Source of the DNA: Fistulifera solaris
Taxonomy: Eukaryota
Length of the DNA stretch: 64,000 nt
Assembly: GCA_030295235.1 (NCBI GenBank)
Contig: AP026149.1
Coordinates: 558,001 to 622,000, forward strand
Direction: 5' to 3'
Shown here: positions 37,389 through 61,632 of the stretch, one piece after another
How the letters are laid out: every line of letters starts with the position of its first letter
Numbering within the stretch: position 1 is the first letter of the stretch
The notes under the pieces: generated by a model
The model's database searches: none
What the model saw: only the letters and a program-made list of their open reading frames with translations
What the model was told of the DNA's origin: nothing
Program-made: the position numbers and the translations under genes

Positions 37389-37849
37389 TTTGGATTGTTG
37401 GTTTGTTTTTCTTTCAATCGCAAATACAATATGAAAGGAGAATCGCGGCAATGCCGAGTAATGATAAAATTGATTCTATAATCTTGATACAAAAAGTTAG
37501 ACGACCAGCTTTCATAAAAAATAATCACATCAAGCAGCGCGTGCAGCGATGATTTTTTATCGCATTCGATTATTTGCGAAATGCGAAAATGAATCGAAAA
37601 ACGGCTTTAAGCGGGTGGCGGCCGTACCAGATTCATCCGGGCTCCGGGCCCCGCCCGCACGTCCCCCGCCCGTACGTAGTAGAGTCGATCAGTTTATAAT
37701 AAGGTTAGGGCCATCGGTCATCGGTCATCGGGTCATCGGCATCATCGTGGCGACAAAGATTCATTCTCGTTTTCTCTTCTCATCACATAACCGATCAAGG
37801 TGTTTAGCTGCTCGATAACATCCGTTCATCTCTAGAAAAAAAAGACACC

Positions 37850-39400
37850 ATGACGATTTGTTGGGACTTGATTCGTCGAATGGAAAAGGGAGCGCTATTG
37901 GAGCGGATTCCGGAAGAAGAATGGTCTCCTGAGCAAGCCGCTTGGGGTACGGAAGAGCCGCTGTACCGATTCCGGTATACACCGACGCTCGACGATTTTC
38001 AATGGGACGATAAGCAACAATTTGCGGTTTGGCGTGAAAATGGAACACTTGTTTGCCTTCAACATATTGACGGCTGGCGGACGGAACTTTTTGAAGGCTG
38101 GCGGACGCGAGATGCAAGTTCGGAGCCACGCTACAAGTATCAGGGACAGAGCGTTGCGTTTGAAATAGATTTCACCAGGCGTGTTGACGGAGTCAAGTGC
38201 ACAATATATGGTAAAACGAATCATGCCATTGCCGAGACATTGACCTTTCTTTGGTCGCTTGATCGAGGGAGGGCGAAAATACAAAAGGCTTTGTTATCTT
38301 CCTTAGATGTCTCGATCCTTTCCGCCGAGCAACTAGCTTCTATTTTGAATGCCAACCGAAATATTCAGCTGAATATGCCCTCCATTGCGTGGACGCCAGA
38401 ACAGTCGGTCGTTTTGGCCACGAGACCGTTTTCGTTGAATTGGAACCTTACACAACGCTTCAGCGACCATGGAACGGCGTTCGTCAGCGCACTTCAGACA
38501 CGTCAGAAAGGACAATCGAACTTTGGCACGCTCACCTTTGAGGTTAGTACCTTCAGCCGCCCCAATCTCGAACTACTTTTTCAATTGGAAGATACATTTA
38601 CAAAACTTGATGTCGAGTGTCACGATCATGACCTTGTCTTACTTCCGTTCTCAGCCAAGGTTGAAACTCTTCACTACACGTTTGAAACGTATGGAATTGT
38701 TGATCCGGAAGACTTTGGATCAATTGAGATGAAGCCGAAAAATGTTCATTTGGAAATCAAAAATTTCATTCGGAACGTACTCATGGTTACTGCGGTCTTG
38801 GATCGTCTAGCGCAGTTGGGTCACTTGGAGCGATTGGGTCTAACGCTTGCTGAGATTGGTCGCAATATTGATGCGGATCAAGTAGCCCTTGTTGCCGAAG
38901 CGCTCCTTCGTGTCATCCATGCCAATCCCAGTCTGTCGTATCTGGATTTGAGTAAGACGCATCGATTTCATCAACGTGTGGATTGGACACCCCACTATGA
39001 ACAAATCTTCGACGCGATGGAAGCTCGCAGCAGTTTGAGCACGTCGACCATTGCAATCCACGAACCAGGAAGAAACACACCTTTTGGGGGCTACTCTGAT
39101 ACGTCCATGAACGCGGCATTGTACTCGCAGGTGGAGACTTTACTCTCCCGCAACCGACACATCCTAGTCGAAGACCAATGGGGTTTGACTTTTACAGATG
39201 GATCCAAGATCGACTCGATTTATAAACTGAATCGGTTTTACAATGGGTCCGAGAATCTGGCCAAGGGAACCACATCCTTTTGGAAGCCACAGCTAATGGT
39301 CACGGCCTTGACACACAGTTCGTCGGGAAAGTTTTCCTTCACCGCACTGCTGCTGTCACATCACACGAACACGCTGGTGGAATGCTTGTATGGATCCTGA
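37850..39400 (+). CDS. Lineage-expanded hypothetical protein (RNI/LRR-like C-terminal half), intact member of a local multicopy family
   Basis: 516 aa single-exon ORF. ANPSLSYLDLS, LLSRNRHI, IDSIYKLNRFYNGS and ALLLSHH motifs recur in degraded copies elsewhere in the window. Confidence 0.75.
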   Translation: MTICWDLIRRMEKGALLERIPEEEWSPEQAAWGTEEPLYRFRYTPTLDDFQWDDKQQFAVWRENGTLVCLQHIDGWRTELFEGWRTRDASSEPRYKYQGQSVAFEIDFTRRVDGVKCTIYGKTNHAIAETLTFLWSLDRGRAKIQKALLSSLDVSILSAEQLASILNANRNIQLNMPSIAWTPEQSVVLATRPFSLNWNLTQRFSDHGTAFVSALQTRQKGQSNFGTLTFEVSTFSRPNLELLFQLEDTFTKLDVECHDHDLVLLPFSAKVETLHYTFETYGIVDPEDFGSIEMKPKNVHLEIKNFIRNVLMVTAVLDRLAQLGHLERLGLTLAEIGRNIDADQVALVAEALLRVIHANPSLSYLDLSKTHRFHQRVDWTPHYEQIFDAMEARSSLSTSTIAIHEPGRNTPFGGYSDTSMNAALYSQVETLLSRNRHILVEDQWGLTFTDGSKIDSIYKLNRFYNGSENLAKGTTSFWKPQLMVTALTHSSSGKFSFTALLLSHHTNTLVECLYGS

Positions 39401-45667: not shown

Positions 45668-46025
45668 TTGGTCTCCTCATGCGGAGACAATTCTAGATGG
45701 TGTAGAACACCAACGTTTTTAACCTTGAAAACAGATGAAATCTCGGAATTTGATGGGTTTTCTAACATTCGGCAGTTGCTGTCACAGAACAGAAACGTCA
45801 CAGTATCGGATGTAGATGGAGAGATTTGTTCAGGCGGATCGTCGATTGATGCTCTATACTCCTTAAACCGGTTCTACCGAGGTTCGATGGATCTAGCGGT
45901 AATGGCGTCATCAGAACGACCGTCTTTTTGTAGCGAGAGCTCTGATGGAATTTGCATCGAGCGATTTTCAGCGTTCCGCGCTCTTACTCTCAGATCACTC
46001 TGATCTGTTACATGAACTTGTTTAG
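45668..46025 (+). pseudogene. C-terminal remnant of the 37850-39400 family
   Basis: RQLLSQNRNVTV...SSIDALYSLNRFYRGS, then in a shifted frame ALMEFASSDFQRSALLLSDH. No intact N-terminus. Confidence 0.7.
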
Positions 46026-50976: not shown

Positions 50977-51587
50977 CTATGAAATAAATAAGCAATAAAA
51001 GCAAGATAGCAATGTAAAGCTGAATCACTGATAGAAACGTTGTTTTCAAGTATGCGCGATTGGTTGTTTCTCGCAATAATTAGCGGCACGTTAACAGCGT
51101 TGTCTCCCTTTACTGAGGGCACACGCAAAACCCTACGTAAGGCGCGTTGTCTAGCTACCGGGTATACTGCTACGAAACATTCTCTCGTCGTACAAGCGTT
51201 TTACAACATACTCCGCATTAAATTCATCACCATTAGCTTATCCTAACATCATTCGCCAAAGCTATCGAATTTAAATGTTGAAAGTAGCGATAATAGTTTT
51301 TGTCTACCATTTCTACTATAAAAGCAAGCAGTAGGCGGTTTCATGCGACTTTTCCCCGCGACTGCCCCGCGACTGCATTTCAGTCATGAATTAAGTTCTT
51401 GCGAAACTTGACTGCTGATTACCTTCCGTTCATTTGGCGAGCTTGATGGTAAGTCACACATCTGATTTCGTCATTAAAGTGTCGATGTCGATGTCTGAAG
51501 TAATTATTATTCCGGACTATGTGAAAACGGGTGTGACTATGTGACAATACTACATCGATACTTTACTACGCCGCAAGCGGGGTACTT

Positions 51588-51618
51588 GTACCGGTACGGT
51601 ACGGTACCGTACCGGTAC
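51588..51618. repeat. Perfect 15-bp inverted repeat with 1-nt spacer, built of GTAC units
   Basis: GTACCGGTACGGTAC-G-GTACCGTACCGGTAC. Confidence 0.9.
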
Positions 51619-51732
51619 CTTTTGATGACACTCCTCACGGACGTCGGACAGAGACAACGTACAGCCATTTGCATTTTTATGATGCAACAAAAGGATCACT
51701 ATATTCAAGATCATTGATTGAACTGTACAAAA

Positions 51733-55262: not shown

Positions 55263-56621
55263 TCATTGCATCTCTAGGCGTAACTCCTGCATTTGCTTCT
55301 TTTCTATTTCTACACTCGACTGCAGCTTGACGGCAACCGTGATTTCTATAACTTTCAGTTCGTCACTAACAGCCATCAGTCGATTGACCTTCACTTCCAC
55401 AACGTCACCAGGCTGCAGATCTTCCAGTGCTTCAAACAAGTCCGCTTCTCGATTGATTTTGGTGTTGCCCACTTGAATAATAATGTCACCTATTTCAATG
55501 AGTCCATTTTCTGTTCGCCGTGTTCCCTTAAGACCCGCCGCAGCCGCTGGACTACCAGGTGGGACATCCAGGATCAGGACTCCATTTGTGATGCCCAAGG
55601 ATCGCGCTTGTCTTGATTCCAAATATGAAATGCCGATAATGGGGCGCACGACGCGACCATCCCGAATTAATGTTTCGACAACAAATTTAATGGTATCGCT
55701 CGGTATCGCAAAGCCAATTCCTGAAGATGCCCCGGAAGGTGAGTAGATTGCCGTATTCATGCCGATTAATTTGCCCGATGAATCCAACAATGGCCCTCCG
55801 GAATTTCCTGGATTGATAGCGGCGTCGGTTTGAATGACATTACTGATGGGACGCCCAATAGGAGATCGTACTTCTCTTCCTAAACCACTGACGATGCCTG
55901 TGGTGAGAGTATGATCTAAACCAAAGGGATTGCCGATAGCCAAGGCAGTTTGTCCGACTTTGAGTCCCTTGGAAGTGCCCACAGCAATCGGTTGTAAAAG
56001 TTCCGGCGGAGCATCGACTTTGAGAACAGCAATATCTTTGCTAGGATCGACACCCACAACTTTCGCTTTAAAGACAGATCTCGCTATATTTCCGTTGCCG
56101 AAGGAACTAGAGCCTCGCATAGAAGTGTACGGTATCGGAACATCATTCTTACAGGACTGTTGACAGGCGGCATCCGTTAATATGGCAATCTGGGCGGTCA
56201 AGGCATTCCGCACGACATGATAATTTGTAACAATGTGTCCTTCCTTATCCCACACAAAGCCACTCCCACTTCCCAATGGAACTTCCATAATGTTGGGCGA
56301 AAATTGATCTCTTCGTTCCGTAAATGTGTCCAAGAAGACGACGGACGGCGCCGTCTTTTCGAAAATGGCAATTCGTTTCGATTCGCTTTCCGACAAGGCA
56401 CGCGCAGATTGTGGAACGCTTAAGAGAGACGATACAGCAGGTAGAGAGTATAAGAAGTGTCGACGAGTATTGGAGGATGCGTCGCAGCCTTCCTGATCGC
56501 CGTTACATGCCGAACTTAGTCGGCAAAACGAATGAGGCCGTCGTGAAGTAGAAATTTCGGTCCATGCTAGTGTTTTGTGCGACAGGAGAAGGATTGCGGC
56601 CAATGTAGCAATGAAAATCAT
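55263..56621 (-). CDS. Deg/HtrA serine protease with PDZ domain (Deg1/Deg8-like, likely thylakoid lumen)
   Basis: GSGSGFVWD, IVTNYHV, DIAVLKV, IQTDAAINPGNSGGPL, PDZ domain. Twin-arginine TRRHFL and ARA cleavage motif. Confidence 0.92.
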   Translation of the reverse strand: MIFIATLAAILLLSHKTLAWTEISTSRRPHSFCRLSSACNGDQEGCDASSNTRRHFLYSLPAVSSLLSVPQSARALSESESKRIAIFEKTAPSVVFLDTFTERRDQFSPNIMEVPLGSGSGFVWDKEGHIVTNYHVVRNALTAQIAILTDAACQQSCKNDVPIPYTSMRGSSSFGNGNIARSVFKAKVVGVDPSKDIAVLKVDAPPELLQPIAVGTSKGLKVGQTALAIGNPFGLDHTLTTGIVSGLGREVRSPIGRPISNVIQTDAAINPGNSGGPLLDSSGKLIGMNTAIYSPSGASSGIGFAIPSDTIKFVVETLIRDGRVVRPIIGISYLESRQARSLGITNGVLILDVPPGSPAAAAGLKGTRRTENGLIEIGDIIIQVGNTKINREADLFEALEDLQPGDVVEVKVNRLMAVSDELKVIEITVAVKLQSSVEIEKKQMQELRLEMQ

Positions 56622-56843
56622 GCTTTGCAAACGAGTTTTGATGCGCTTTGAATGATAAAGGTGTGATAATCCAAAATATAACGACTTGTAAAGACCTCAA
56701 AAAGATCTTGTGTTATGGTTATTTTATTTAATGTTGTTGTTCTGAAAAAGTCGAATCATCGCGCCCTGCCATCACGAACCACGTCACTTCACACCTGGAA
56801 CCCGGAGGAGGAATTAGTAAGCTTCTCTCACAACAGCTACTTT

Positions 56844-57370
56844 TCATAGCCCAGATCTAAAGCATCCTACAAAGGCGCTGCCATTCTCTTCAAACGCGCA
56901 ATCATGAAGAGTGACACAAACCGGATGAGGTTGATATGCCAGAATAATGGATTGTTGATTGCTCAGCTTCAGGTTGCAAAATCTTACATCTGTCTCAAGT
57001 CTCAACATCGACACGCCGACACAGACACGCACACTGGATACACATCGAAAGATTTGCGAATGAAATAACAAGACTGAAACACTGCACGAAACGCGTCAAA
57101 CGAAAAACCAAACGTCCATTGTCTCAACCATCGTCGAGGCAAACAAAGTGCCTCCCATGGATTTGGCATCCATGATTTCCCCTTTGTTCAAAAGCGAATT
57201 TCAAACGCGAATTGCGCTGGTGAGATACAAGCAGGCCAGGCTCGCAGCTGCGCTCATGAAAAATATTCAGACGCGTATACCGAGACATTCATTTGTGGGT
57301 CGTGGGATCCCAACACATGGAGAAAACCGTTGCTCCAGACAGAAATACTTAGATAGCTCCCTCTAAATGA
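56844..57370 (-). pseudogene. N-terminal/middle remnant of the 37850-39400 family
   Basis: LSNQQSIILAYQPHPVCVTLHDCAFEENGSAFV parallels WTPEQSVVLATRPFSL...SDHGTAFV. Stops occur upstream. Confidence 0.6.
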
Positions 57371-57475
57371 TTTTTAAACTGAGTTTGTGAACACAAATTG
57401 ATTTTGATTTTACGATAGGAGTAGCATCGCTGAATTTTTGTTTCCCTCTTTTTTCGCTGCGTTCTTCTTCTTCTC

Positions 57476-58029
57476 ACATCTCCTCTCAAGGGCGACTGAG
57501 AGAGGTTTGATGTCCTCCCCGTATTCAGTTGTTGCCAAAGCTGTGGCCTGCGATCATAGCTTGGGACCGTATGGTTGAATACTCAGTGGGAGCGCATGAA
57601 GGGTTGTGGTGCGTATGTCCCGAGGAAGGAGGAGTCGTCTCGCAAAATGGGAACCTCGTATCGTCTCGACGATTCGCTTGCCTGCTTGCGAGGCTTCCTG
57701 CCTTACCGGAAAACACGCAGTTGGAGCATTGTGCTGGGAAAAGTTCTTCACCTGAGTTGTGGGATCCATGAGGCGTGCCGAAGAACTGCGTGCGCCGATG
57801 ATTGGTGAAGCAATGGTAACGGTTGAGCGGGGTTTGGGGTTCACCCGCTGAGCAGCTTATGAAAGCCACATTCGCCTTTCCGCTCCCAACCGGATACATG
57901 GGCGTTTGTGATCGCTTGTTGACATCTGCTTAACGTCTTTGGAGCTCTTGCGGTGCTTATGAGTTATCCTAGAAATAGGTTAGCGGTTACGGGCACTAGC
58001 AAGGGTCCCCCATATGTCCCAGCACAATG
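57476..58029 (+). ncRNA. Second candidate structured non-coding RNA of unknown family
   Basis: 13-bp perfect long-range stem 57727-39/58017-29, CCTA-GAAA-TAGG tetraloop on a long G-U-rich hairpin, and several further G-U-containing helices on the + strand. Confidence 0.5.
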
Positions 58030-58385
58030 AAAAATGTATACCACAACACCTTCATGCTAACACTTGTTCATTTGAAAACCAAATAGTTTTAAATAATATA
58101 TAAAATACAACTGATGGATGCGCGCGATGGGTAATGGTGACAGAGGAGCTCCTCCATCTAACACTGTCCAATTTTGTGTGCTCGAACAGTTTCAAGGTCG
58201 TGAGGATTGTCATTTTCTCTAGATTCTCTGCGTCATTTAATCAGCTTGCTTGGCGCCAAATAGAGCGTTCGAACGTTATGAAGTCCGCCGTGTTTCGATC
58301 GTCATCATTGCAGATTACGGAGTGATTTTTTCGTTATGAGCCGAAAGCGACAGACGTGTCCGCAATACACATAGTTGCCGAGATC

Positions 58386-59100
58386 TTACCTCTTACCGAC
58401 TTTTTGTGTATGTAGCCAGATCCAGGGACGCGGCAATCGCAATGTACCGTAGGCCAAGACACGTATTCTCCTCCGTTGCTGAATCCTACCTAGTGTTCGT
58501 CTACGACTGCACCCTGGAATACACTCATTCAAGACATCGACATGATGTGATAACAAAAGAGCGGAGCGGCGAAAATCGTTCGAGGCTTGTTTCACTAGGG
58601 CAGTACCCAGGAAGCGACACTCGCTCCAAAGGCGGTTGTGCCGCCAAATCCGACGATCCGTGAAAGAAGCGATGCATCGCATAGAGCTTATCCACCAAGG
58701 AACCATCCGTATATATGTCATCATTTTCATTTATCACAATAATGTTTGAATTGCGAGATAACAACTTGCGAAGATGAATATAATTCGGTTACGACAAGCA
58801 GTCCTCGATGATCTTTTAAACCATTGAAAAGGGTTTGTACGAGCATATCCCATTCCAGATCGTCTTCACCGGTATACAAATCAGGTACCATCAAGTTGCG
58901 ACTCGCCATCACTGCGCTGATCAGTGTGTACCGAACAAACCTAGGTATACCAGCCTCGTTGTCATCAAATTTGAAACGGAGTTTGAGTTGCTCGAAATGA
59001 CCCACATTTTGCAAGCGCTTGAACACATCGATAATTCTCGTTTGCATATATCGTGTCGTTATATTCGTCGGACATGTTCGCATGCAGGAAAAGACAAAGA
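58386..59100 (-). pseudogene. C-terminal half remnant of the 37850-39400 family (several frameshifts)
   Basis: RLQNVGHFEQL, LSRNSNIIV...DGSLVDKLYAMHRFFHGS and TALVKQASNDFRRSALLLSHH fall in three different frames. Confidence 0.7.
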
Positions 59101-59317
59101 TCCATGAAAACAATAACGACGAGAATAAGGAAAAGGCGAAAAACGCACCCAAGCGGAGTACCGGATCCAGGTCGAAAGAGGTTCATGGTCGCATGGCAGC
59201 TAGGGATTACTCGGTAGATAAAAATTTAGCTCAACAAACATACATTACTTATTAATAATCATACAAAATAATTCACACATTGCAAACCAACATCATCTTC
59301 CTGTGCGTCTTCTTCAT

Positions 59318-61632
59318 CTAATTGGTGGATACCACCAGTGCCTTGATCGAAGCAGCCAGTTCTTCCGCTTGCGGTAACGTCATTTGACGCAGCGCAAACA
59401 CTTCTTTTTTTGGGTCGACAATCGTCGGGTCATCAGTTCGGGTAATGCGAACATGATGTGGCACTTCGTAAAGCAGCTGCGCCAGTTGCCGTTCCTCCGG
59501 CACTGTTCCCCGCTCGTATTGAGACATAAGCAATAAATCTCCTTCAGTGTGCATGGCGGCACAGTATGATTTGCCAAGATTGATACAACACGTTGCAGCC
59601 AATCGAGCAAAGCTTTTCTCTTGAAGCGATATTTCTGGATGCGCCCACGGCGTTTCATGAGCTGCAGGATCATATTTAACTTTTTCGGTGTATCGTCCAC
59701 TAAACAATAAAGCTATGTGTGTTAAAAAAACAACCCAAAACTCAAACTCACAATCTGTCTTTGGACTTACATGAACCACATCAACGAATCCAAGATACCT
59801 TCGTCCACCAACACACGGGCCCTCTGTTTATCCTTAGCCAATATCATTACTTCCTCCATGGCTTCAACACGGTCATCATGCATGGCTTCCGCGCTCGCTA
59901 GCACATCCAACCATGCTCTTGGCTGGAGTACAGGATTCAAAGCGTGAATCTGCGAGGCCGTCATTATTCGTCCTGGTGCAGCAATTGTCGAGTTAGCATA
60001 TCATACCATGAAAACATAATAAATGAAAATACCTTCTGACCAACTCACCTTCCCGCAAGCATGCTACTCTGCCATTCTTGTTTTTACTAAGTCGCGCGGC
60101 GGGGGCAACCGGTGATGTTTGATCGGTTGTTTTGGACCTTGAGGCTACTATACTTTCATCATTTTCACTCATCATAATTTCCGATTCCGATGTCGGCAAC
60201 AGCTCTTTGGTTTCCACATCCATAGTGGCGCAACAACTTTGAATATCCGCTGGAACGTGTTCCGCGATGCCTGAATCTTTGTACGTATTCATACACGATT
60301 GTGAGATAGCATCACCCGCGCTCATGACAGATTCTTGCGCACTTTTCATCATGTTATTCCTCTGCTCTTCGGGAATTTGCATCGCACCAGCACCTATACC
60401 TACTGCAGCAGCTCCTATAAGCAGTCCTACGGGTCCCAGCACCACACACCCTACGATAGCGGCCGCCGAAACAATTCCCACCGTCTTGGCAATCGGGGTT
60501 TCTAAAGTCTTTCGATAGCTGTCCACACTGTCTTTCTGCATAAACTTGGTGCTCCTCATTTCCGCCTTTGCAGCATCGACAGCTTCTTTTCGTGCCTTGA
60601 TTTCCATTTCTTCGCGAGCGAGCCGTTGATGGTACGACAGACTCTCTTGACTGTTGGAATCATCCACGTCCTCTTCGTCATAGATCTCGGATCGTGTACT
60701 CCGACTGCTACTTTGTTGCTGATGAAAGAATGCTGCAACATCCGGTGTAATAGCAGAAGCTGATAACTCTGAGCGAGTAGGATTGCGTAGTAACAACATC
60801 TGTGGATCTTCATAGGATCCTCCTTTGACTTCGGTATCTGAAGAGGAACTCGTAGAAGGCGTCAAACGAGTGATGCGGTAATTGACCGGACTCGGTTTTC
60901 GAAAGACTGCGTTTAGTTGTTGTTGCTGATTCTCTTTCAAAGCAGGCGAAGCGCCTTTCCGCAAATGCTCCGACCCATTCCTTCCCATTGGTTGCCGAGC
61001 ACGATTGTGCCCTGCCAAAGCGGAATCATTTTCGTCCCGAGTGAGAACAGGCTCTGGGTCTTTCGGGTGCCGATTCGTTCGTTTGCGTCGTGTTCGGTCT
61101 TGTGTAAGCTTTTGTCGTCGCGTCATCCGAGTGGACGCAGTGTTATGTGAAGCGAAGGCGTCCGTCATAAAGAACGACCGCTCATGATCACTATCGTTCC
61201 CGTCGTTTGAAAACGGGTCCCTTCTATCTATAATTTGATTCGATTGTGAATTGAAATTGTGTGTTTGAATATTCTGGGCTTGACTGGGTTGTTGCGAATT
61301 CGGATCCAGCACATCGTGTGCAGACATGTACTTCGCTTGCTCTGCTCTGCTTTGAATAAGTTGCGTTGTCGGTGATAAAGTATCTGATTTAGAAGGAAGT
61401 TTCACTGCGTGCCTTGTCTTGAATGGTTGTTGTGACCTCGAGGCATCATTTCGTACAGCGTTTTCATTTTGCAGTCGCCGAATTCGATTTTGCGCGGCCT
61501 GTGTTGTTGTTGTTCTTTGCGAAGTGACGGAACTCGTCTCTGTGTACGATGCAGCGGTTAATTTCTTTTCCGACTCTCGTATGGAGTAATTTTATGTTGC
61601 GCGACAAAGTCGGTTGCCGCCTGGTTTGTCAT
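59318..61632 (-). CDS. Hypothetical protein with a central Gly-rich hydrophobic segment and a C-terminal helical (ARM-like) domain; 2 introns, frameshift near 61567
   Basis: ORFs 59993-61405, 59767-59964 and 59318-59779 are flanked by GT/AG signals. Adding one A at 61566-69 links them to the ATG at 61632. Confidence 0.6.

Follow-up and report, generated by a model that had tools for sequence, protein, structure and literature searches.

A dispersed noncoding repeat with a conserved core that may function as a folded RNA

Genomic setting and coding capacity of the locus

The 64,000-nucleotide stretch of DNA analyzed here (the window) is gene-dense eukaryotic nuclear DNA that carries, among others, genes for Slu7, Integrator subunit 1, Brix, proline dehydrogenase, ZIP, and MatE. 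The locus under study lies in a spacer of approximately 1.8 kb between a DegP-like protease gene and the 3′ end of a second gene, which are arranged with the parts of the spacer as listed below.

55263-56696, - strand: DegP-like protease gene with Trypsin_2 and PDZ domains (Pfam), left neighbor of the locus
56993-57475, + strand: left variable flank of the repeat unit, AT-rich, T/C-rich just upstream of the core
57476-58035, + strand: conserved noncoding core, the locus of the original prediction, best conserved over about 57490-58035 (~545 nt)
58036-58242, + strand: right variable AT-rich flank, in which T4 first occurs at 58087 and sequence resembling AATAAT/ATAAAA occupies 58093-58110
58512-58782, - strand: last part of a - strand gene (its 3′ end), right neighbor of the locus

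The original prediction described a structured RNA-like locus of no recognized family sitting between two decayed gene copies. The description of its neighbors is apt on the right side, where 58512-58782 (-) resembles the ends of paralogous genes, its translation being 36 to 56% identical to those of 39122-39394 and 45758-46022 (C-terminal ends of the genes found there), but not on the left side, where nothing gene-like comes before the DegP-like gene. The paralogous family itself comprises 58512-61591 (-), 37808-39400 (+), and about 45758-46022 (+) and carries no Pfam domain, its 530-aa and 532-aa frames giving no Pfam match. The paralog near 45758-46022 lies outside any frame of at least 150 aa and may be a fragment.

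Coding capacity was not apparent in the spacer. Neither the longest frame (134 aa, 57525-57929, - strand) nor a 100-aa frame at 57064-57366 had a protein homolog, and the eight ORFs scanned within 57064-58325 gave no Pfam match at the curated cutoff, two faint subthreshold rows having E values of 0.06 and 0.014. The absence of a recognizable RNA family, noted by eye in the original prediction, was borne out by Rfam, with no match window-wide at gathering scores and none at E values of ≤10 on either strand of 57000-58500. At the latter threshold and in the same interval, the models for RNase P, RNase MRP, SRP, and telomerase RNA were all without a match, as were those for snRNAs, group I and II introns, and small ribozymes. 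ARAGORN reported no tRNA-like gene in 56500-59000, and the A-box- and B-box-like strings found by eye were poor and 250 nt apart.

Copies, extent, and possible class of the repeat

Contigs from four sequencing runs (X1, X2, X5, and X7) were aligned onto positions 56400-59300; the low-share runs X9 to X20, which are metagenomes or come from other organisms, were left out. Of the 196 contig pieces, 55 differences, and 43 loose ends, 29, 40, and 17, respectively, were listed and form the basis of the comparison. In X2, the single-copy flanks were covered with no other letter, at a depth of 18.7 to 21.4 over 56400-57157 and of 14.5 to 16 over 58149-59300, and the organism carrying these flanks, which may be the source of the window itself, is therefore present in this run. 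X2 may even be the very sample behind the window assembly and hence may not provide independent support. Between these flanks, 13 different X2 contigs shared place 57336 (carrying G) and 10 shared place 58074 (carrying C). Since a diploid locus yields at most two variants, these variants are paralogous copies. The k-mer depth of the core in X2 reached 285 (57585-57684) and 429 (57827-57956), versus 14 to 21 in the unique flanks; per contig, the core was approximately 15 to 30 times deeper than the flanks, a ratio that gives an order of magnitude only, as the summed depth is not a copy number. No second copy was detected in the 64-kb window by self-comparison at a word size of 9 or 7, and the family is thus dispersed. 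Pattern scans for further copies gave no match in metagenome, genome, and viral contigs and none in plasmids or phages.

Judged from these contigs, the locus is one copy of a dispersed noncoding repeat whose many copies are spread over this eukaryotic nuclear genome and also occur in relatives. Taken literally, the original prediction describes something else, i.e., one gene, present only once, that encodes a new structured RNA of the RNase MRP, telomerase, or SRP-like kind. The predicted stems are present and no family was recognized, but the 10 to 13 variants at the same places in one organism's run, the excess depth of the core contigs over the flanks (~15-30x), and the unmatched RNase P, MRP, SRP, and telomerase models at E values of ≤10 make a unique gene extremely improbable. 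The original prediction had also stated that identification as a repeat removes the novelty of the locus; as one copy of a multicopy dispersed repeat, the locus loses its novelty under that clause. A ribosomal DNA spacer was considered as well and rejected: Rfam found no rRNA match at gathering scores anywhere in the 64-kb window, the copy lies between protein-coding genes, and the flanks differ among copies (10 to 13 variants).

The extent of the unit was deduced from a contig whose match begins at 56993 and from contig joints at 57077/8 on the left and from the start of a unique contig on the right. One X2 contig matched from 56993 rightwards and was preceded by 219 unlike letters, and the unique right-hand contig of X2 began only at 58149, so the repeat unit spans at least about 1.2 kb, from about 56993 to 58180-58200. 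In addition, three X2 contigs of single-copy depth linked 57077/8 to 57131, 57190, or 57196; in other copies, this part of the left flank must hence be of another length or have given way to other sequence.

Within the unit, conservation was distributed unevenly. The core was near-identical in all copies seen, whereas the flanks were represented by many variant contigs that were homologous but diverged. For instance, a 320-nt X1 contig covering 57716-58035 at a depth of 408 carried a single other letter. An X5 contig spanning 57799-58142, from a run labeled with another organism, had 14 differences, of which 10 were listed; eight of these 10 fell in the 107 flank bases 58036-58142 and two in 237 core bases, so that the core share is 2 to 6 in 237 bases and the flank share at least 8 in 107. 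On the left, the sequence behind loose ends at 57374 was still homologous to the window; by eye, some 20 of the 30 letters agreed. The left flank (56993-57475) is possibly promoter-like. A 15-nt direct repeat joins the left flank (57296-57310) to the core (57753-57767) with 13 of 15 letters alike and ends in GTGGGATCC; it may be due to chance. This distribution also bears on the original argument that helices kept intact at this site suggest selection or a recent insertion. Because all copies of the core are near-identical, the helices are intact here too, and no special preservation at the site is needed.

We then looked for the hallmarks of mobile elements. No terminal inverted or direct repeats joining the approximate ends of the unit were found, no target site duplication fitted the boundaries, and neither a poly(A) tail nor an empty site was seen; among the listed joints, no contig joint skipped the element. 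Several candidate boundaries were rejected. At 57388/58070, a TG...CA pair looked LTR-like, having an inverted end of 6 nt and the 4-bp repeat TTTG, but it does not mark the ends of the unit, as other copies are homologous across both points, and homology likewise continues in other copies across a TTTGA candidate at 57511/58070. The 9-nt direct repeat ATGAAAAAT (57256/58027) occurs at chance level (about 0.7 expected). A nested MITE bounded by a 13-bp inverted repeat within the core lacks a flanking duplication (GGAG versus AAAA), and the depth of X1 is similar inside and outside (262 to 304 versus 408). Finally, a SINE or a retrocopy of the 545-nt RNA was discarded, as the repeat has no tRNA-, 5S-, or 7SL-like head and no A-rich tail and its copies share homologous flanks.

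These results make membership in a specific known class very unlikely. The classes considered were SINEs, introner-type elements, solo LTRs (U3-R-U5), and a MITE with the 13-bp inverted repeat at its ends. The layout is LTR-like, with an AT-rich part followed by a T/C-rich start, a long GC-richer body, and an AATAAT/ATAAAA-like stretch, and the TG...CA pair with its inverted end and TTTG, as well as the 13-bp inverted repeat enclosing 277 bp, also speak for one or another of these classes. However, homology between copies runs across 57388 and 58070, the 13-bp repeat has no flanking duplication, there is neither a tRNA-like head nor a small-RNA match in Rfam, and the flanks are common to the copies, unlike those of SINE insertions. 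In addition, the copy is intergenic, and none of the listed contig joints skips it.

Comparison with these classes shows where the likeness ends. LTRs have been described with ends of the TGTTRNR...YNYAACA type and a 4- to 6-bp duplication (PMC3601003). Relative to a solo LTR so described, the repeat has a similar size (~1 kb), is noncoding, has a variable upstream part followed by a better-conserved and possibly transcribed part, and contains AT-rich, promoter-like sequence as well as AATAAA-like sequence; tens of copies would likewise suit an LTR. It differs in that such ends with a 4- to 6-bp duplication were not found at the ends of the repeat, the TG...CA candidate at 57388/58070 being internal, and in that the window contains neither an internal gag-pol part nor a second LTR. 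With MITEs and introner-type elements (PMC12130899, PMC1562414), the repeat shares its shortness, lack of coding capacity, multiple copies, and internal inverted repeats, yet its 13-bp repeat is internal rather than terminal and without target duplication, and the copy is intergenic and no joint skips it. The SINE superfamilies with a conserved central domain, of the CORE, V, and Deu types (PMC4758252, PMC5804259), resemble the present repeat in being noncoding, dispersed, multicopy, and presumably transcribed and in having a center that is conserved across copies and species and ends that vary. Unlike these SINEs, the present repeat lacks a tRNA-, 5S-, or 7SL-like head, an A-rich or simple-repeat tail, and a target duplication; its conserved part of ~545 nt is several times longer, and homologous flanks extend beyond it. 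Among the papers listed by literature searches, none reported an element of this kind in diatoms.

Predicted folds and comparative signal in the core

All of the stems named in the original prediction were found where it had placed them. Together with the hairpin arms predicted here and a second, outer inverted repeat, they are as follows.

57482-87/57500-05, + strand: hairpin CCTCTC/GAGAGG
57515-57592, + strand: predicted 5′ hairpin arm (57521-32/57571-82, inner 57538-46/57554-62), with a z score of -2.09 on the + strand and -1.43 on the - strand
57594-57610/58040-58057, + strand: second, outer inverted repeat with one bulge, absent from the original prediction
57611-57720, + strand: predicted long hairpin arm, variable in its distal portion (57644-57685), with a z score of -3.29 on the + strand and -2.63 on the - strand
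57727-57739/58017-58029, + strand: 13-bp long-range stem, CATTGTGCTGGGA and its exact complement, 277 nt apart
57826-31/57844-49, + strand: AGCGGG/CCCGCT helix
57849-57932, + strand: predicted hairpin arm with a variable patch (57899-57917)
57944-58006, + strand: GAAA-tetraloop arm (63 nt) with a CCUA-GAAA-UAGG cap, the best-supported helix

The 13-bp long-range stem of the original prediction is on its own within chance for a 64-kb window. Perfect inverted repeats of at least 13 bp with a loop of up to 600 nt numbered two in the real window and were present in 33 of 60 dinucleotide shuffles, with a mean of 0.75 per shuffle. The only other such repeat of the window, with a short loop, belongs to a palindromic simple repeat of GGTACC/CGGTAC units at 51575-51620. 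No change in the 13-bp stem was listed in any of the four runs, although three other letters of an X7 contig over its 3′ arm (57998-58032) are without listed places; being invariant in every run seen, the stem shows no covariation and is neither supported nor contradicted. The outer inverted repeat is real in this copy but was rejected as a conserved helix, as it is broken in other copies by 58052 T>A (in X1, in X5, and in about half of the depth of X2) and, by eye, by a further mismatch plus an insertion in the X7 loose end behind 58032.

The excess of folding over shuffled sequence that would be expected of a structured RNA was slight for the whole locus and larger in some of its parts. Over the entire 554 nt, the z score was -1.84 on the + strand (3 of 100 shuffles were as good) and -1.37 on the - strand, and sliding 150-nt windows over 56000-59900 gave core values between -1.3 and +0.6. 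Subdomains, with limits that were picked after folding, reached -3.3 to -4.9, including -3.32 for 57727-58029 (0 of 100 shuffles). The GAAA arm (57944-58006) stood out with a folding energy of -27.1 kcal/mol and a z score of -4.93 on the + strand (0 of 200 shuffles), compared to -12.1 kcal/mol and -1.52 on the - strand. For this arm, the asymmetry upholds the original proposal that G-U pairs fix the + strand as the RNA strand.

Comparative information came from X7, an rRNA-depleted metatranscriptome in which one relative is represented in part. Its contigs cover 57491-57952 and 57998-58032 at 92 to 97% identity, and the changes they carry are clustered. At most one change was found in each of two long segments, 57491-57643 (153 nt; Poisson tail, 0.002) and 57686-57795 (110 nt; 0.016), compared to eight in the 42 nt of 57644-57685 (0.003) and six in the 30 nt of 57954-57983 (0.007). 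These variable patches coincide with the distal parts of predicted hairpin arms. The 5′ arm lies within the first of the invariant segments and hence offers no covariation to judge. In the arm at 57611-57720, all eight changes fit the hairpin (two A-U to G-U, one G.G to C-G, and five in loops), and the variants keep the same predicted shape at -46.8 and -50.3 kcal/mol, compared to -42.8 kcal/mol for the window. Of the five changes in the arm at 57849-57932, three are unpaired, one turns G-U into A-U, and one breaks an A-U pair.

For the GAAA arm, an alignment made by eye placed the 30 letters that follow the X7 contig end at 57952 on 57954-57983; 24 of the 30 are identical and one G is missing. 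Two pairs are compensated (57971/57976, A-U to C-G; 57966/57981, A-U to U-A), for which the chance among six random substitutions is about 0.002, and two changes are of wobble type (57983, G-U to A-U; 57958, U-G to C-G). Together with those at 57644, 57660, and 57900, the wobble-type changes at 57958 and 57983 fit a + strand RNA only. Elsewhere, single changes at 57797, 57917, and 57940 break predicted pairs, in helices whose pairing probabilities are only 0.4 to 0.6. Single changes at predicted pairs were compatible in five cases versus disruptive in three, a ratio that transition bias by itself could produce. Of the 22 known changes, 12 fall on paired positions, compared to a 67% share of such positions in the core.

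A dispersed repeat without RNA-level function would explain part of this pattern: its stems would be incidental, its copies young or homogenized, and its paired changes the product of a DNA-level process, such as template switching inside an inverted repeat. Template switching has been reported to create and maintain hairpins without selection. Such a reading is in keeping with the 13-bp stem being within chance (33 of 60 shuffles), a whole-region z score of only -1.84 with unremarkable local windows, the lack of an excess of compatible single changes (5 versus 3), and the outer stem broken in most copies. It does not, however, lead one to expect the z scores of the GAAA arm (-4.93 on the + strand and -1.52 on the - strand), which are unlike those of a DNA palindrome, or wobble-type changes that fit only a + strand RNA. 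Furthermore, the youth of the copies alone explains neither a uniform core beside varied flanks nor at most one change in 153 nt beside eight in 42 nt. We consider incidental stems an unlikely explanation.

The structured-RNA reading keeps some of its ground. It gains from the + strand-asymmetric folding, the compensation in the GAAA hairpin, the location of changes at hairpin tips, and the RNA-library contigs on the core, and it loses by the multicopy nature of the repeat and the chance level of the 13-bp stem. On balance, there are some indications that the conserved core works as a folded RNA, one that belongs to no known family.

Hints of transcription were also sought around the core. The X7 contigs come from an RNA library that may hold DNA, and they lack strand and end information. 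A TCA-A initiator-like site (57486-57489) adjoins the start of the leftmost of them, which lies 2 letters upstream of 57491. No T4 run occurs on the + strand of the core, the first being at 58087, whereas AAAA, which is T4 on the - strand, begins at five core places (57644, 57710, 57739, 58030, and 58031) and at 58075 in the right flank. A + strand transcript would fit this contig start, the initiator-like site, the absence of T4, and the AATAAT/ATAAAA-like stretch. The depth of X1 was 0 outside about 56982-58242, compared to 400 to 1,500 on the core, and X1 was considered as an RNA run with RNA ends near 57467-57506 and 58035-58048. We treat this interpretation only as a lead, as uncovered parts prove nothing, depth is a poor measure, and a loose end at 57506 spoils the hint that two studies share a stop.

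Interpretation of the conserved core

Gene families for snRNAs, 5S rRNA, and spliced-leader RNAs combine near-identical RNAs with drifting flanks. By analogy, the repeat could be a multicopy family of cellular noncoding RNA genes, each with a promoter flank, a structured + strand RNA of ~545 to 600 nt, and an AT-rich 3′ flank. Such a family would have spread by DNA duplication, with purifying selection or gene conversion keeping the RNA near-identical while the flanks drift. Several observations speak for these genes, namely, the contrast between a near-identical core and flanks that have diverged while staying homologous, seen inside one genome and again in another labeled organism, the marked differences in rate between long invariant segments and changeable hairpin tips, the two compensatory pairs and the + strand folding asymmetry, and the absence of any transposon hallmark. 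The presence of the core on RNA-library contigs, the leftmost starting by the TCA-A initiator-like site, and the lack of T4 on the + strand of a core that has AAAA at five places point in the same direction. The parallel with the snRNA, 5S rRNA, and spliced-leader families extends to the near-identical transcribed region, the diverging flanks, and structure-preserving changes. It stops at the length of the RNA (~545 to 600 nt here), at the missing Rfam family, and at the promoter and terminator elements of those families, which were not identified here.

Against such genes stand the lack of a match to any known RNA family even at E values of ≤10, the weak thermodynamics of the whole RNA (z score of -1.84, with unremarkable sliding windows), the three single changes that break predicted pairs, the outer stem that is not kept, and the putative nature of expression, RNA ends, and strand. 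We also know of no cellular noncoding RNA of ~550 nt in tens of dispersed copies, which gives this explanation a low prior. Thus, the conserved center, the variable flanks, and the absence of transposon hallmarks favor a noncoding RNA gene family, whereas the prior does not, and we regard such genes as a serious but rather unlikely possibility. In its fullest form, the proposal would be an undescribed structured noncoding RNA of ~545 to 600 nt (an RNP scaffold or ribozyme-like) for which a diatom-like alga would maintain tens of dispersed genes, near-invariant between copies and related organisms by purifying selection, with only the peripheral hairpin tips varying, by compensatory change; we hold this to be improbable.

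Dispersed noncoding repeats of eukaryotes that measure ~1 kb and occur in tens of copies are usually transposon derived. As the best explanation, we tentatively propose a selfish repeat that is non-autonomous and in which selection maintains the core of a + strand RNA, a proposal that we place close to, but short of, probable. It builds on what was observed directly, i.e., the many copies, the core set between variable flanks, the lack of coding capacity and of a known RNA family, the strand-asymmetric folding, and the compensation in one hairpin, to which we add, by inference, transcription and its ends, mobility, and a role of the fold. The element would be mobile or otherwise self-propagating and would depend on functions other than its own. 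Transcription of the + strand would be driven from its own upstream flank, with a putative start and end. The resulting RNA core would comprise three hairpin arms with variable tips, one of them GAAA capped, and the 13-bp helix would close the 3′ domain. This core may be needed in cis for propagation, e.g., through recognition by a protein supplied in trans, and selection would keep it for that reason.

The selfish repeat has its own difficulties. No hallmark of any transposon class was found, and a center that is more conserved than the ends better fits a gene with promoter and terminator flanks. In transposons, the ends are normally the constrained part and a conserved center is unusual. Simple retroposition of the 545-nt RNA is ruled out because the flanks are homologous between copies. 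Moreover, the covariation comes from 30 letters of one relative, and contigs of an RNA library do not demonstrate transcription.

What the repeat would mean depends on which of these explanations applies. If it is only an unclassified repeat, it adds one more repeat family to one genome, and the intact helices of this intergenic spacer call for no particular explanation. Should selection act on the core as an RNA, whether selfish or cellular, algae of this lineage would have a class of large structured RNA that is absent from Rfam, and its comparative signature would be that of invariant segments combined with variable, compensating hairpin tips. Within the first of the invariant segments, in which no more than one X7 change was found, an ATG-started frame of 22 codons occupies 57510-57578 on the + strand, which may be either a small ORF or a coincidence.
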